Source: a virus
Lineage: Duplodnaviria; Caudoviricetes
Direction: 5' to 3' (one strand)
DNA: 64,000 nt
IMG/VR virus record: IMGVR_UViG_3300032237_000080
Coordinates: 305-64,304 of that record
Positions 41,432 to 49,357 of this stretch are shown here, one piece after another (the first letter of the stretch is position 1; each line of letters begins with the position of its first letter). The translations under genes were made by a program, and so were the position numbers. A model generated the notes under the pieces. The model searched no databases, was not told the origin of the DNA, and saw only the letters and a list, made by a program, of their open reading frames with translations.

Positions 41432-41625
41432 TGGATATGCGCTCCACAGTTTTTATTCTGAAAGAGATTGACAAACTCCGTATGGATCAAGTTAGCCATT
41501 TAAGTGGTGGGGGCGCAAAAGATTTTGCCGAGTATCGGCACGTCTGCGGGGTCATCCGGGGTCTGACCCATGCAGAACAACTTGTCAAAGACCTTGTGCA
41601 AAAAATGGAGTTTGAAGATGAGTGA
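41428..41625 (+). CDS. Hypothetical protein
   Basis: LSGGGAKDFAEYRHVCGVIRGL; overlaps the portal stop. Confidence 0.7.
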   Translation: MMDMRSTVFILKEIDKLRMDQVSHLSGGGAKDFAEYRHVCGVIRGLTHAEQLVKDLVQKMEFEDE

Positions 41626-42028
41626 ATTTGATACCACTGCGGTAGATTTGTCTGGCATTCTTAATACGAGTGCAGAAGAAAAAGCAAAGCAGTTGCCCGA
41701 CCCAAAAACTTTCCATATTCTGTGCGTTGTCCCAGAAGCAATGGAACAGTACCACGATAGTGAGATTGGCATTATCAAATCAGGTGACACCATGCACTAT
41801 GAAGAAGTACTGACCCCAGTGCTGTTTGTAGTAAAGCTTGGCCCTGATTCCTTCAAGGATGAGAGTCGTTTTCCAAGCGGCCCATCATGTAAAGAAGGTG
41901 ATTTTGTCATCGTACGCCCCAATTCAGGCACCCGCTTGAAGATTCATGGTCGTGAGTTTCGCATCATCAATGACACCTCAATTGAGGCAGTAGTTGAAGA
42001 TCCCCGTGGCATTACACGTGCAGCATAA
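41618..42028 (+). CDS. groES: GroES/Cpn10-like co-chaperonin
   Basis: LPDPKTFHILCV...GIIKSG mobile loop...VVKLGPD...CKEGDFVIV...GREFRIIND..IEAVV. Confidence 0.8.
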   Translation: MSEFDTTAVDLSGILNTSAEEKAKQLPDPKTFHILCVVPEAMEQYHDSEIGIIKSGDTMHYEEVLTPVLFVVKLGPDSFKDESRFPSGPSCKEGDFVIVRPNSGTRLKIHGREFRIINDTSIEAVVEDPRGITRAA

Positions 42029-44422: not shown

Positions 44423-45334
44423 ATGGCTATTTCACGTGCACAGCTACTTAAAGAGTTGCTTCCCGGTCTGAATGCTTTGTTTGGTTTGGAGTATGTTCGC
44501 TACGGCGAAGAACACAAAGAACTGTACGAGATCGAAACATCTGAGCGTTCTTTTGAAGAAGAAACCAAACTGTCTGGCTTCTCTGCCGCACCAGTCAAAA
44601 ACGAAGGCGCTGCCATCGCTTACGACAATGCACAAGAGGCATGGACAACCCGCTATAACCACGAAACCATTGCTTTGGGTTTCTCAATCACTGAAGAAGC
44701 GATTGAAGATAACTTGTACGACAGCTTGTCTGCTCGTTACACCAAAGGTCTGGCCCGTGCTATGGCATACACCAAGCAGATTAAAGCTGCTGCTGTTTTG
44801 AATAACGGTTTCTCTGCCAACTACGTTGGTGGTGACGGCGTTGCTCTGTTCAGCACTTCTCATCCCTTGGTCAATGGCGCAACCAACTCCAACCGTCCTT
44901 CCACCGCTGCCGACTTGAACGAGACTTCCTTGGAAGCCGCCGTTATTCAAATCGCTGCTTGGACTGATGAGCGTGGTCTGTTGATTGCCGCCAAACCTCG
45001 TAAGCTGGTTATTCCTCCAGCATTGCAGTTCGTGGCTACCCGCCTGTTGGAAACCAAACTCCGTGTTGGTACAAACAACAACGACATCAATGCGTTGATG
45101 AATAACGGTTCGATCTCAGAAGGTTACACAATTAACCACTATTTGACCGACACCAATGCTTGGTTCTTGACTACAGACGTTCCTAACGGTTTGAAGCACT
45201 TTGTTCGTACTCCGCTGTCTAACAGCATGGACGGCGACTTTGATACCGGTAACGTCCGTTACAAGTCCCGTGAGCGTTACAGCTTTGGCTGGTCTGATCC
45301 TTTGGGCGTATTCGGTTCACCCGGTTCGTTCTGA
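44423..45334 (+). CDS. Major capsid protein
   Basis: MAISRAQLLKELLPGLNALFG...PRKLVIPPAL...YKSRERYSFGWSD; GGAG RBS; strong codon bias; followed by a terminator. Confidence 0.88.
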   Translation: MAISRAQLLKELLPGLNALFGLEYVRYGEEHKELYEIETSERSFEEETKLSGFSAAPVKNEGAAIAYDNAQEAWTTRYNHETIALGFSITEEAIEDNLYDSLSARYTKGLARAMAYTKQIKAAAVLNNGFSANYVGGDGVALFSTSHPLVNGATNSNRPSTAADLNETSLEAAVIQIAAWTDERGLLIAAKPRKLVIPPALQFVATRLLETKLRVGTNNNDINALMNNGSISEGYTINHYLTDTNAWFLTTDVPNGLKHFVRTPLSNSMDGDFDTGNVRYKSRERYSFGWSDPLGVFGSPGSF

Positions 45335-45338
45335 TGAT

Positions 45339-45367
45339 AAAGGGGGCCTTGTGCCCCCTTTTCTTTT
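45339..45367 (+). terminator. Rho-independent terminator after the MCP
   Basis: AAGGGGGC-CTTGT-GCCCCCTT followed by TTCTTTT. Confidence 0.85.
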
Positions 45368-45385
45368 GGTGTATATTGCACACAT

Positions 45386-45444
45386 CTGGGTGATCCGCTT
45401 TTACCGCCACTGCCCCAGCAGACGATGCAACGATTGGTAAAAGC
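45386..45444 (+). ncRNA. Candidate structured RNA (H-type pseudoknot)
   Basis: CTGGG (45386-90) pairs with CCCAG (45414-18), crossed by GCTTTTACC (45397-405) pairing with GGTAAAAGC (45436-44). Confidence 0.5.
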
Positions 45445-45467
45445 TCTTTTGCATAAGGATTCTTATC

Positions 45468-46475
45468 ATGGGACGTAGTACATTTGAAGGCCCAATTCTT
45501 CAGGGCGACAATCGATTTGGCCCTCTTCGTAACGTAGGTTATACAGAGGCAGTACAAACAGCATACATAGACATTACTAACACAACCGCTAACACTTCTG
45601 GTTATTCTGGTGGTTCTGGTCAGTTTATTGCATCTAACGGAATTCCTAATTCCACCGCAACGGTGTATACACCTTCTGCTGCAACATACCCACCTACGGC
45701 ACAAACAATTCCTGCGGACTCTGCGACTAACGTATATCGCGGTGCTGTTATGTATCTGCCTTATGGTTCAACCATCAATGATGTTTTTGTTGATTGCGGT
45801 AACCCTGTAGCCGTTTCTGGTGGCTCAGCCGCACTTACTTCCGCTACTGTATATGTTTCAAATAACTATACAGCCGCCGCAGGTACAGCAAAATATTTTC
45901 AAACTGGTTCAATTACTGCTGCTGGTCGTCAATCGTTATCAACATTTACTACAGCGCAACTTTATAACCAACAGCTTGGCACTACCGGTGACATCACTAA
46001 CCCACCCGCAAGCGGTCAAGGCACAAGCCCTACCAGCAGCCTAGTATCACAACTTGTGTTTACTGTTGCTATTGTTGGCACTTCTTTAGATACACGTGTT
46101 GCTACAGCGACTGTTGCTGGTGCTGTAATTGCAGATACTATCGGTACTTTCACTTGTACTTCTAACGCGTTCTTGGCTGTTGGTCAAACAATAACTCTTT
46201 CCGGAACATACGGTGGTACAGGTTCAATCAGCGGTTACTCCAACCCAACGAGTTATTTGGTTGCTACTGCTACTGGCGGCGCTGGTACTGTTACTGGGTT
46301 TAAGATTATTAACTTGGACGGCTCTGCGGTTACAACAACTGCGGGTACACCTACAGGTATTACTTACACAATCAGTTCAGCACTTTCTGGTAGATTCCTT
46401 TTCACGGCACGTTATACGCAGCTTGATGGCAACATCGGCAGTACTACCGCTTACCCATACGGTAACTTTGACTAA
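45468..46475 (+). CDS. Putative virion structural protein (head fibre/decoration-like)
   Basis: MGRSTFEGP start; Thr/Ala/Gly-rich; AAGGA RBS. Confidence 0.6.
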   Translation: MGRSTFEGPILQGDNRFGPLRNVGYTEAVQTAYIDITNTTANTSGYSGGSGQFIASNGIPNSTATVYTPSAATYPPTAQTIPADSATNVYRGAVMYLPYGSTINDVFVDCGNPVAVSGGSAALTSATVYVSNNYTAAAGTAKYFQTGSITAAGRQSLSTFTTAQLYNQQLGTTGDITNPPASGQGTSPTSSLVSQLVFTVAIVGTSLDTRVATATVAGAVIADTIGTFTCTSNAFLAVGQTITLSGTYGGTGSISGYSNPTSYLVATATGGAGTVTGFKIINLDGSAVTTTAGTPTGITYTISSALSGRFLFTARYTQLDGNIGSTTAYPYGNFD

Positions 46476-46484
46476 TTGAGTAAC

Positions 46485-46506
46485 GGGGGCTTCGGCCCCC
46501 TTCTTT
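46485..46506 (+). terminator. Rho-independent terminator with UUCG tetraloop
   Basis: GGGGGC-TTCG-GCCCCC followed by TTCTTT. Confidence 0.8.
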
Positions 46507-46525
46507 GGAATTAAAGGAGTATCGT

Positions 46526-49357
46526 ATGTCAGGTGGATGGACAGTAGTTGACTCAGCGTCAAACAAATCAATTCCTATTCAAGGATCAAACGTTTCAGGC
46601 GCTGCTGCGCCTTTTGTAACACCTGCTCCGGGTACACAAGACCCAGTAGGAAAATTCCGCGTATCTCAACCTCAAGCGTTGATTGATACCGACTTTGAAT
46701 ATGGTACGCAGCCTACAAAGTGGGAATCTATTGCCTTGCAAAACAATAGGCAAAGTACGTATTTTATTCAACAACAGCCTTTGGGTGTTACATCAATTAC
46801 AGGCACAACAACATTAACACTTACTGGCACATTTGCTGTTGCCGCTAATACACCAATCTTTATCCAAAATGCAACTGATTCATACGCCAACGGATGGTGG
46901 TGGACAATTGCTGGCGGTACAAACACAATGACCTGTATCCCTACAACTGCGCCAGCAGCAGGGGAAAAGTTTAGCGCAACCGGCACCTATGTGTATGCGG
47001 GTTATTTTTATTCAAACTGCGGCATTAGCTTAACCGGAACAACAGCGTTTACAACAGATGGTACAGCTACTGTTCTTTGTACTACCACTGGCGCTCATGG
47101 TTTGCAAAAAGACAGCCTGATTTATATCAAGGGTACAACTAGCTCAGGAACAACCATCAACGGCGCGTTTGTTGTTGCGACAGTACCGACAGCTAATACA
47201 TTCACTTTTGTAAATACCAACGGTACGGTGGCGGCATCAGCTATCACCAACGTTGCTAACAATACTACGCTTTATGCCCGCCCTGCGGGTTATGTAGAGC
47301 CTCGTACTTTTGATGGTGGTGTGGCATTTACCGCTGGTGGTGGAGCGCCTAATCAACAGTTGATTCGCCAAACACGCCGTTATTTCCGTTACCAATCTGG
47401 TAAGGGTATTCAGTTCTCTACAGGTTCATCTTTGAAGCCTGCGCTATTTGTTACTTCTATTACGGGTACTGGAACAACTGCAACAGTCACCACTCGTTAT
47501 GTTCATAACATGACGGTAGGTTCTAGGATACAGGTATCCGGATGTAACCAAGGTGTGTACAACGGAACATTTACGATTGCCACAGTAACTTCACCAACTG
47601 TATTTACGTACACAACCACGAACAGCATAGGTGTGACCCCAGCAACAGGACTTATTCGTATCAGCCCTTTGAGTTGGTATGGTTCTTCTAATCGTGTTGG
47701 AATGTTTGACCAGCAAAACGGATTCTTTTTTGAGTTCGATGGTCAGACTTTGTACGCCGTATTGCGAAATTCCATTAACCAAATCAATGGAACAGTTGCC
47801 GTAACCAACGGCTCAAACATTGTTACGGGTACAGGGTCAGCATTCGCCTCTCAATTATTGATTGGTGACTATATTGTTATCCGTGGGCAGTCTTATAAAG
47901 TGCTTACGATTACCAGTGATACTGTTATGCAGGTTTCTCCTGAGTATCGTGGCACTACGATTAGCAACGCTTTGGTATCGCGCACAATTGATTTCAAAAT
48001 ACCGCAGTCATCTTGGTACGACAAATGTGATGGCACAGGCCCATCAGGATACAACATTGACCTAACTAGAATGCAGATGTGGTACATCGACTATTCATGG
48101 TACGGTGCTGGTGTTGTTCGTTTTGGTTTCCGTGCAACAAATGGGCAGATAACTTACGTTACACAGATTCAAAACAACAACTTACAGTTTGAAGCCTATA
48201 TGCGTTCCGGAAACATGGCTGCCCATTATGAGTCAAATGGACAGTCTCCAATAACGCAGTTGTCAGCCAGTTTAAGTACCGGCGGAACAACCACACTATC
48301 TGCGGCAATTACTGTTGACGCAGCGACAATCCCAATAACCTCAACAACTAACTTTAACAATGCTGGTATTGCAGTGATTGGCACTGAGTACATCTACTAC
48401 ACAGGTATTTCTGGTAGTAGTTTGGTTGGCTGTACGCGGGGTTACGCAAAGACTGTTGCAAAAGGGTATCCAAGTGGCACAACAATTGGCCCATCTTCAA
48501 TTGATATTGATAATGGTAATGGTTTTGCGCCATCAGGCACTGTTAAAGTGCAAGCGGCAGGTGCTACTGGAGCGATTGAATACATCGCCTATTCAGGTAA
48601 TGATGGCAGCTTCTTGTATGGATTAACTCGCGGTCAAACTGGTGGAGCTGCTGCAACAGCGTTCACCTACTCAGCAACAGCTCCTGTAGCGGTTGAGTTT
48701 GCATCTCCTGATACCGTACCTTCTCTGTCTCACTGGGGTTCGTCAGTCATTATGGATGGTCAGTTCAACGATGATAAGTCGTTAATCTTTAACTACGGTG
48801 TAAATCTTGCAGTAACTTTACTTACTACAACCACTTTAGTTTGCCCATTACTTGCAATTCGCATCGCCCCATCAGTAGATAATGGTCAAGTTGGATTGCT
48901 TGGTCAAAAAGAAATTATTAACCGTATGCAGTTGACGCTGCTTGAGTTGGGGGTTGTTGCAAGTGGCACTACTTTAATTACTTTGGTGCTGAACGGTTAT
49001 GTAGTGGGCGGAACGTGGGGGGCTTGGACTTCGCCAATTTCCCAAGGTGTTGACGCTGTTATTTCATCATTGGCTCAAGTTTCGGTAAACACCTTAAATA
49101 GTGGCACATTGAGGGGCGGTGAGTCAGTTGCTGCGTTTTATACCAACTCAGGTGGTCAAACAACTTTGGACTTGTCTCAAGTACGTGACATCGGTAACTC
49201 AATTTTGGGTGGTGGTAATAGCTCTGCTGTGTCTACAAGCCCTGCCAATATCTACCCAGATGGCCCTGATGTTTTGTATGTTTGCGCTACCAACGTGGTT
49301 AGTTTGGCAACACCAAGTGTGTACACTCGTTTGTCTTGGAAAGAAGCACAGGCTTAA
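46526..49357 (+). CDS. Large beta-rich virion structural protein
   Basis: AAGGAG RBS before ATG 46526; repeated Thr-rich beta domains (TTTGAHGL, TTRYVHNM). Confidence 0.65.
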   Translation: MSGGWTVVDSASNKSIPIQGSNVSGAAAPFVTPAPGTQDPVGKFRVSQPQALIDTDFEYGTQPTKWESIALQNNRQSTYFIQQQPLGVTSITGTTTLTLTGTFAVAANTPIFIQNATDSYANGWWWTIAGGTNTMTCIPTTAPAAGEKFSATGTYVYAGYFYSNCGISLTGTTAFTTDGTATVLCTTTGAHGLQKDSLIYIKGTTSSGTTINGAFVVATVPTANTFTFVNTNGTVAASAITNVANNTTLYARPAGYVEPRTFDGGVAFTAGGGAPNQQLIRQTRRYFRYQSGKGIQFSTGSSLKPALFVTSITGTGTTATVTTRYVHNMTVGSRIQVSGCNQGVYNGTFTIATVTSPTVFTYTTTNSIGVTPATGLIRISPLSWYGSSNRVGMFDQQNGFFFEFDGQTLYAVLRNSINQINGTVAVTNGSNIVTGTGSAFASQLLIGDYIVIRGQSYKVLTITSDTVMQVSPEYRGTTISNALVSRTIDFKIPQSSWYDKCDGTGPSGYNIDLTRMQMWYIDYSWYGAGVVRFGFRATNGQITYVTQIQNNNLQFEAYMRSGNMAAHYESNGQSPITQLSASLSTGGTTTLSAAITVDAATIPITSTTNFNNAGIAVIGTEYIYYTGISGSSLVGCTRGYAKTVAKGYPSGTTIGPSSIDIDNGNGFAPSGTVKVQAAGATGAIEYIAYSGNDGSFLYGLTRGQTGGAAATAFTYSATAPVAVEFASPDTVPSLSHWGSSVIMDGQFNDDKSLIFNYGVNLAVTLLTTTTLVCPLLAIRIAPSVDNGQVGLLGQKEIINRMQLTLLELGVVASGTTLITLVLNGYVVGGTWGAWTSPISQGVDAVISSLAQVSVNTLNSGTLRGGESVAAFYTNSGGQTTLDLSQVRDIGNSILGGGNSSAVSTSPANIYPDGPDVLYVCATNVVSLATPSVYTRLSWKEAQA

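Follow-up and report, generated by a model that had tools for sequence, protein, structure and literature searches.

The closest described counterparts of the RNA reported here are pseudoknot riboswitches that reach the Shine-Dalgarno (SD) sequence and pseudoknotted operators of autogenous control. Among the former, preQ1-II, SAM-II, SAM-V and guanidine-III are leaders of about 70 nt with a pseudoknot of marginal stability, whose last strand abuts or includes the SD and whose junctions hold a few invariant bases. Among the latter, rpsO (S15), the alpha operon (S4) and gene 32 of phage T4 have a pseudoknot at the initiation region of the message for a protein that is needed stoichiometrically; the rpsO leader of Escherichia coli alternates between hairpins and a pseudoknot, and the leader of the alpha operon is a double pseudoknot. 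A double pseudoknot of similar size is also found in HDV-like ribozymes, with the helix order P1-P2-P3 hairpin-P1'-P4 hairpin-P2' and the first helix at the 5' edge of the element. With respect to phages, Mu-gpT-DE (RF03012; model of 53 positions) is a structured RNA catalogued downstream of Mu gpT-like head genes, and about 8,500 unnamed candidate RNAs from IMG/VR were presented by Fremin et al. 2023 (PMC10690425). The pseudoknot of T4 gene 32 is set off from the ribosome-binding site (RBS) by an unstructured A/U-rich tract (PMC3014915).

Here we describe a predicted RNA from a tailed phage (IMG/VR record IMGVR_UViG_3300032237_000080), which lies at positions 45386-45454 of a 64,000-nt window (the whole stretch of DNA that was analyzed; all features given below are on its + strand), directly upstream of a probable capsid cement gene. 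Like the riboswitches named above, it is a leader of about 70 nt in which the last strand of the pseudoknot abuts or includes the SD, a few junction bases are invariant, and the fold would be marginally stable; unlike them, it has four helices, two crossings and a 3-bp clamp around the 3' strand of its first helix, S1, and it precedes a gene for a virion structural protein. With rpsO, the alpha operon and T4 gene 32 it shares the pseudoknot at the initiation region and the prospect of a product needed in stoichiometric amounts, with the alpha operon also the double pseudoknot, and in about two thirds of its family helix S1 and a local hairpin, P0, may alternate in the way of the two conformations of rpsO. 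As in such operators, the structured element is conserved together with its gene at the initiation region, and this holds even after gene insertions. Similarity in sequence or model to these three is absent, and, in contrast to the knot of T4 gene 32, the present one touches the SD. It differs from the HDV-like ribozymes in the order of its strands (S1a, S2a, P1b-a, S1b, P1b-b, S3a, S2b, S3b), in having the 3' strand of S1 in the loop of P1b, and in a last helix that pairs beyond S2. In its presumed function the RNA most resembles the SD-reaching pseudoknot riboswitches and the pseudoknotted autogenous operators, and it is a member of none of these groups.

The first-pass annotation of this DNA, made from the one sequence, had raised the possibility of a match to a catalogued phage pseudoknot motif. 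Scanning positions 44800-46000 of the window against Rfam 15 with cmscan under permissive filters returned nothing on the knot at E <= 10, and nine divergent relatives gave no family match at E <= 1; the only matches in these scans were terminator-driven chance ones far below the gathering scores. Specifically, the models of preQ1-II, SAM-II, SAM-V and guanidine-III match neither the window nor the nine relatives, and an HDV-like model matches none of them. Mu-gpT-DE is the family closest by position, in that the major capsid protein (MCP) encoded here matches Mu-like_gpT, and it too gave no match at E <= 10 over the whole genome, a complete IMG/VR record of 64,304 bp; a further difference is that the present RNA stays with the cement gene, and not with the capsid gene, where the two are separated. 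The suggested match, Mu-gpT-DE included, was thus not recovered from Rfam 15, relative to which the RNA is new. Nothing was found in support of a packaging-associated small RNA, another early suggestion.

Comparative evidence for the fold

The two crossing stems of the first-pass annotation are both exact in the window: S1 pairs CTGGG (45386-45390) with CCCAG (45414-45418), and S2 is a perfect 9-bp helix of GCTTTTACC (45397-45405) and GGTAAAAGC (45436-45444), with 30 nt between its arms, of which the 17-nt linker CAGACGATGCAACGATT (45419-45435) forms the last part. In this sequence alone, the stems are not beyond chance. Perfect 9-bp inverted repeats whose arms are 3-40 nt apart number 10 in the window, no excess over the 12.3 +/- 4.6 expected from first-order Markov simulations of the window; minimum free energy (MFE) folding of the single sequence gives z-scores of -0.27 and -1.20, which are not significant; and nested MFE folding recovers S2 and misses the knot. 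We accept the stems as real because relatives were compared, not because of these single-sequence statistics.

A search of IMG/VR with the MCP retrieved 80 loci with a capsid protein 86-94% identical, and reading the DNA 3' of each capsid gene uncovered a homologue of the element with evident compensatory changes in about 50 of the 80. In a plain MAFFT alignment of 45 leaders that was fitted to no structure (A1), 93.3% of the cells are paired, versus 28-43% after a shift of the 3' partners by 1-3 columns, and 20 of 23 pairs show changes on both sides. A covariance model built from S2 and the small helix P1b only (R1) locates the element in 66 of 81 sources; in the alignment obtained from it (A2), S1 is 99.1% paired and S3, a further helix, 96.8%. 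Extending the comparison to 90 non-redundant leaders less than 93% identical (A5), 90.7% of the pair positions are formed, versus 19-47% for slid controls, with compensatory changes at 22 of 24 pairs, covariation at all 10 pairs of S2, and an observed score that none of 500 shuffles reached. Since S1 and S3 were outside the covariance model behind A2 and A5, their support is not built in. Moreover, read from the opposite strand the frequent G-U pairs would turn into A-C mismatches, so the selected object is the + strand RNA. At the level of sequence, these patterns establish that the leader forms a pseudoknotted RNA kept through compensatory change. Both originally drawn stems are accordingly conserved and co-varying in the MCP-downstream regions of relatives (A1 and A5), and the pseudoknotted RNA proposed from them holds up as a genuine element of the + strand.

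Architecture of the predicted RNA

Four helices make up the RNA: S1 (5 bp), P1b (3 bp), S2 (9-10 bp) and S3 (6 bp). The 5' strand of S1, CUGGG (45386-45390), pairs with CCCAG (45414-45418); the helix is 99.3% paired in the 90 sequences of A5, covaries (UA 62/CG 28; GC 77/AU 10) and occurs in the variants CUGGG/CCCAG, CCGGG/CCCGG, CUAGG/CCUAG, CCGAG/CUCGG and CCAGG/CCUGG. S2 is formed by GCUUUUACC plus G45406 (45397-45406) and by a U plus GGUAAAAGC (45435-45444), such that nine Watson-Crick pairs are followed by G45406-U45435. It encloses P1b, in which CUG (45410-45412), situated after the invariant unpaired A45409, pairs with CAG (45419-45421). P1b is likewise 99.3% paired, its middle pair being UA in 68, AU in 16, CG in 4 and GC in 2 of the 90 sequences, and it closes a 6-nt loop that contains the 3' strand of S1 (45414-45418). 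Five of the six loop bases are thereby taken up by S1, which ties the 5' end of the RNA to the loop of the small hairpin. The 3' strand of P1b continues into the unpaired A45422 and C45423 (45419-45423 in all). The 5' strand of S3, AUGCAA (45425-45430), lies within the S2 loop and pairs with UUGCAU (45449-45454), beyond the end of S2; an unpaired G and A (45432-45433) are conserved between S3 and S2. Across the 90 sequences, the conservation of the unpaired bases is 100% for A45409, 97% for A45422, 94% for C45423, 93% for G45432 and 100% for A45433.

S1 crosses both S2 and P1b, and S2 crosses S3; the RNA is therefore at least doubly knotted. The earlier description as an H-type pseudoknot was right about the crossing, but the third and fourth covarying helices speak against a plain H-type knot with 11 nt of free spacer behind it: what had been taken for a spacer between the knot and the RBS is the 3' strand of the covarying S3, which reaches the SD. 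The resulting fold is unusual in consisting of two linked pseudoknots, with nearly the entire loop of a hairpin engaged in pairing with the 5' end.

The summed energies of the helices, about -18 to -19 kcal/mol before any penalty for the knot, are no better than the -21.2 kcal/mol of the nested MFE structure, and the knot should therefore be of marginal stability, such that a ligand could shift the balance. The 5' strand of S1 can also form, in about two thirds of the family, a local hairpin, P0, with the bases just before S2. P0 covaries with this strand (73% paired versus 14-46% when slid; pair counts UA 39/CG 27 and GC 33/GU 24/AU 5): for instance, CCGAG is matched by UCGG locally and by CUCGG distally, and CCAGG by CCUGG at both sites. 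P0 and S1 are mutually exclusive, a hint of two conformers; P0 is missing from the copy in the window.

Contact with the Shine-Dalgarno sequence

In the window, the SD AAGGA (45455-45459) is located 10 nt past S2 and is followed, after a spacer, by the start codon ATG (45468-45470). Across 109 unique sequences, S3 appears as 38 distinct complementary helix types, and its contact with the SD is kept while its sequence varies: the 3' strand of S3 ends directly against the SD in 51 of the 109 and runs 2-4 nt into it in 45, and some subclasses, such as CUUCAUGC/GCAUGAGG, have the whole GAGG paired. The start codon lies 7-12 nt past the SD in every instance examined. In the subclass to which the window belongs, the 3' strand of S3 stops one base short of the SD, and any occlusion there would therefore be only steric.

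The full element, as defined by the covariance model, is absent in phages Pag-Yong1, HTVC027P, CRP-901 and 023Pt_psg01 and in Alcaligenes phage QDWS535. By eye, the leader of Pag-Yong1 (L202 3460-3522) has an 8-bp pairing of leader and SD, CCGUCUCC/GGAGACGG, along with a competing CCCGGGG/CCCCGGG hairpin; in CRP-901 (L207 3480-3545), CUGUC can pair with GACAG(GAG); and HTVC027P (L204 3790-3858) seems to carry a shortened form with only S2 and S3. An upstream open reading frame that begins at an ATG inside the 5' strand of S3 (17 codons in the window) was also considered and was rejected as unconserved in the other subclasses.

Transcriptional context and neighboring genes

The gene upstream of the RNA (44423-45334, ending in TGA) codes for a 303-aa HK97-type, Mu gpT-like MCP (phrog_371 major head protein, E 2.6e-21; Pfam Phage_capsid_4, 1.2e-15; Mu-like_gpT, 4.8e-10). 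It is followed by an intrinsic terminator of the capsid transcript (45339-45368), predicted as a 9-bp stem AAAGGGGGC/GCCCCCTTT (45339-45361) in which CTTGT forms the loop, with a T-rich tail behind it. Loop and 3' arm of this hairpin together also furnish a -35-like TTGTGC (45349-45354), 17 nt from the -10 hexamer TATATT (45372-45377) of a candidate promoter, so that one hairpin seems to be both terminator and promoter element. The predicted start of this promoter (45383-45385) is 1-3 nt before S1. Nearly all of 66 close relatives have a -10-like hexamer whose end lies about 8 nt upstream of S1, and in many of them TTGACA or TTGCA is found 17 nt upstream of the hexamer; this conserved position of the -10 box makes a start at 45383-45385 plausible. 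A stretch around the terminator loop, CCTTGTGCC (45345-45355), recurs in about 12 relatives.

A different layout is seen in loci whose MCP is 59-69% identical to that of the window. Here only 4-9 nt separate S1 from the U-rich tail of the capsid hairpin, which leaves no room for a promoter before the knot, and none is present; the leader in this clade would therefore be internal to a read-through capsid transcript. Hence, the candidate promoter that had been ascribed to the RNA finds support in the close relatives, in the -10 box 8 nt before S1, but not as a general feature, and whatever the RNA does must work in both transcript contexts. A role as a stimulator of frameshifting or read-through of the capsid gene was rejected, the knot being 50 nt past the stop codon and behind a terminator.

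On its other side, the cement gene is followed by a terminator GGGGGC-TTCG-GCCCCC (46485-46500); with terminators on both sides, this gene forms a bracketed unit. The next gene probably starts at ATG 46526, behind an SD AAGGAG, rather than at the TTG 46505 chosen by the ORF finder. No promoter of its own precedes this gene in window positions 46476-46530, and it is directly behind the terminator 46485-46500; the tail-side genes should thus depend on read-through.

The downstream gene and its linkage to the RNA

As the first-pass annotation had proposed, the RNA occupies the leader of the gene that starts at 45468. The gene (45468-46475) encodes a 335-aa protein with the N-terminal arm MGRSTFEGP..., which has no Pfam or PHROG match. 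Its AF2 model (pLDDT 71.5) has a jelly-roll-like core, for which the Z scores in VIA-align are modest: 6.6 to the Pam1 capsid chain 7eel_H, 6.0 to the KHP40 cement protein 7dou_4 and 5.7 to the GP4 capsid chain 8h89_J. Foldseek likewise gave weak matches only, to jelly-roll coat proteins. The model further contains an inserted beta-barrel (residues about 211-305; about 100 aa), missing from most relatives. In the metagenome-assembled phage DSL-LC04, whose gene order is the same, the element is likewise present, and the gene behind it is annotated 'cement protein' (PMC10611076). Based on the modeled core, on a position after the MCP gene that agrees with cement genes, and on this annotation, gene 45468 encodes a probable jelly-roll capsid cement or decoration protein.

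All the proteins checked that follow the element begin with M-x-x-T-x-F-x-G-P or a close variant (MGFATHLGPW, MALSTTQSIW), and this conserved N-terminal arm would dock on the conserved capsid protein. Their bodies are much more heterogeneous: they vary from about 140 to 335 aa, a profile HMM of the window's family misses about half of them, and that family comprises only 83 clusters at 50% identity. Some members, of 157-169 aa, match parts of the core, and others the N-terminal arm only. The cement-type gene has the appearance of a variable cassette (L001-L161), in which the promoter, the leader and an arm of about 13 residues are kept and the body is swapped for largely unrelated sequence. 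The RNA is kept more strictly than the protein encoded behind it, and it marks the constant 5' boundary of a gene of the capsid surface that varies greatly.

The element stays with this gene when the neighborhood changes. In at least 16 loci an extra gene is present between the MCP gene and the leader, and the promoter-like box, the knot and the cement gene remain together; the knot therefore travels with the cement gene and not with the capsid gene. The inserted gene (L007, L012, L016, L023, L024, L033, L034, L040, L041, L043, L045, L050, L056 and others) sits between the capsid terminator and the leader, and a recurrent type of it begins M-x-YP-x-x-R-x-EAK-x-x-G-x-x-x-YFTG; the one in L043 (188 aa) has no Pfam match. 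A second copy of the RNA was not found in the genome with the covariance model, the best other match scoring 11.4 bits (E 3.6).

A pattern for one subclass, CTGGG ... CTGNCCCAGCAGAYG, matched at least 120 IMG/VR stretches, and 62 of 63 new loci, with MCPs down to 59% identity with the window's, match the covariance model; the element is thus present in well over a hundred phage contigs from lakes and oceans. Comparison of the 98-nt leader with GenBank phages by BLASTN gave chance matches only. With the covariance model, the cultured SAR11 phage HTVC023P was found to possess the element upstream of gp41 (43.8 bits); S1 takes the form CCUAG/CUAGG there, and a TATAAT box is found 7 nt upstream of this helix. 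Its presence in a cultured pelagiphage makes the RNA open to experimental test.

Possible functions of the leader

The comparisons above demonstrate, as far as sequences can, the structure, its compensatory conservation, its exclusive tie to the cement gene and its fixed contact with the SD; from these we infer an action on translation, a repressing folded state and an effector. On balance, we consider it probable that the double-pseudoknot leader (45386-45454) governs translation of the cement gene in cis via the contact between S3 and the SD. The knot would constitute essentially the whole 5' leader of the gene, with S3 joining a segment of the S2 loop to the bases immediately upstream of the SD and, in many relatives, to part of the SD as well. 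With the knot folded, whether by itself or through a bound factor, the RBS would be butted against it or partly buried, which would set or switch the translation of the cement protein. That the RNA ends at the RBS is the reason to think that it probably controls the amount of cement protein made, and because it would act at the RBS, transcripts from its own promoter and read-through transcripts would both be suitable. Further points in favor of this reading are the covarying P0 as a hint of switching, the marginal stability of the knot, the stricter conservation of the RNA than of the protein, and the complementarity of leader and SD read by eye in relatives that lack the knot. The early characterization as 'riboswitch-like or translational operator' is consistent with this anatomy. 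Our best guess for the effector is a phage protein, namely unassembled cement protein by way of its N-terminal arm or another head protein, which would match the supply of cement to capsid assembly; we think a small molecule the weaker candidate. An RNA that occurs once per genome, and only ahead of one structural gene, would suit a gene-specific effector (a protein, which may be autogenous) better than a metabolite, and the breadth of hosts speaks against a host-specific factor. The balancing of accessory capsid proteins has so far been studied mainly for scaffolding proteins; a regulated operator at this gene, if real, would show how phages balance an accessory against the major capsid protein.

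Some observations go against a translational operator. The N-terminal arm is not notably basic, and docking on the capsid protein explains its conservation; in the window's own subclass, S3 stops short of the SD and P0 is absent. Furthermore, only five unpaired bases are highly conserved, and these cannot tell a protein from a small-molecule ligand. The same data would also fit a ligand-free structure that merely tunes translation or protects the mRNA.

A more specific form of translational control, which we put forward tentatively and regard as doubtful, is that the knot senses assembly: free cement protein, by way of its N-terminal arm, or another head protein would attach to the conserved core and lock S1 and S3, keeping the RBS shut until capsids absorb the protein. 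Such control would define a new class of autogenous operator acting on the translation of a virion protein, distributed among abundant lake and ocean phages including those of SAR11.

We think it unlikely that the RNA is instead an mRNA 5'-end module, in which the knot does no switching and serves to shield the cement mRNA from RNase E or 5'-end-dependent decay and to insulate it from the capsid message. S1 is 1-3 nt past the predicted start or, in the other clade, 4-9 nt past the U-rich tail of the capsid hairpin, so in both layouts the mature 5' end could lie at the paired S1, and the bracketing of the gene by terminators would agree with such a module. Yet a simple 5' hairpin would suffice for this purpose, and four covarying helices, invariant junction bases and a strict S3-SD contact exceed the needs of end protection.

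A small-molecule riboswitch, with the core A-CUG-N-CCCAG-CAG-AC plus GA as a pocket in which binding stabilizes S1 and S3 and closes the SD, would follow the logic of the pseudoknot riboswitches whose 3' strand reaches the SD. The invariant junction bases, the alternative hairpin P0 and the marginal stability of the knot are all in keeping with it, and its occurrence in phages of very different hosts, SAR11 included, counts against a host-specific protein. Nevertheless, we view such a riboswitch as quite improbable: the RNA accompanies a single structural gene and not a gene of metabolism or transport; it occurs once per genome and matches no Rfam riboswitch; and no obvious reason exists for a capsid accessory protein to follow a metabolite.

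We regard as very improbable a new class of self-cleaving ribozyme whose cut would part the cement message from the capsid message. The compact double-pseudoknot fold and highly conserved core would suit a ribozyme, as would the location in one clade inside a polycistronic transcript, directly after the capsid hairpin; but there is no family match, the helix order is unlike that of the HDV-like ribozymes, the SD contact is given no role, and in the window, where the RNA starts at the candidate promoter, cleavage would remove only 1-3 nt. Equally remote is antitermination like that of HK022 put, by which the RNA, just downstream of the candidate promoter, would modify the polymerase for read-through past the cement-gene terminator (46485-46500) into the tail genes beginning with the promoterless one at ATG 46526: put RNAs are two stem-loops and not pseudoknots, no family match was obtained, and the S3-SD contact and the exclusive tie to the cement gene would be left unexplained.

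Additional gene of the capsid region

Four genes before the capsid gene, the window encodes a 152-aa protein (41570-42028) with a weak match to Cpn10/GroES (E 0.0015, below the Pfam cut-off); this is the position of the annotated GroES co-chaperonin in related phages.
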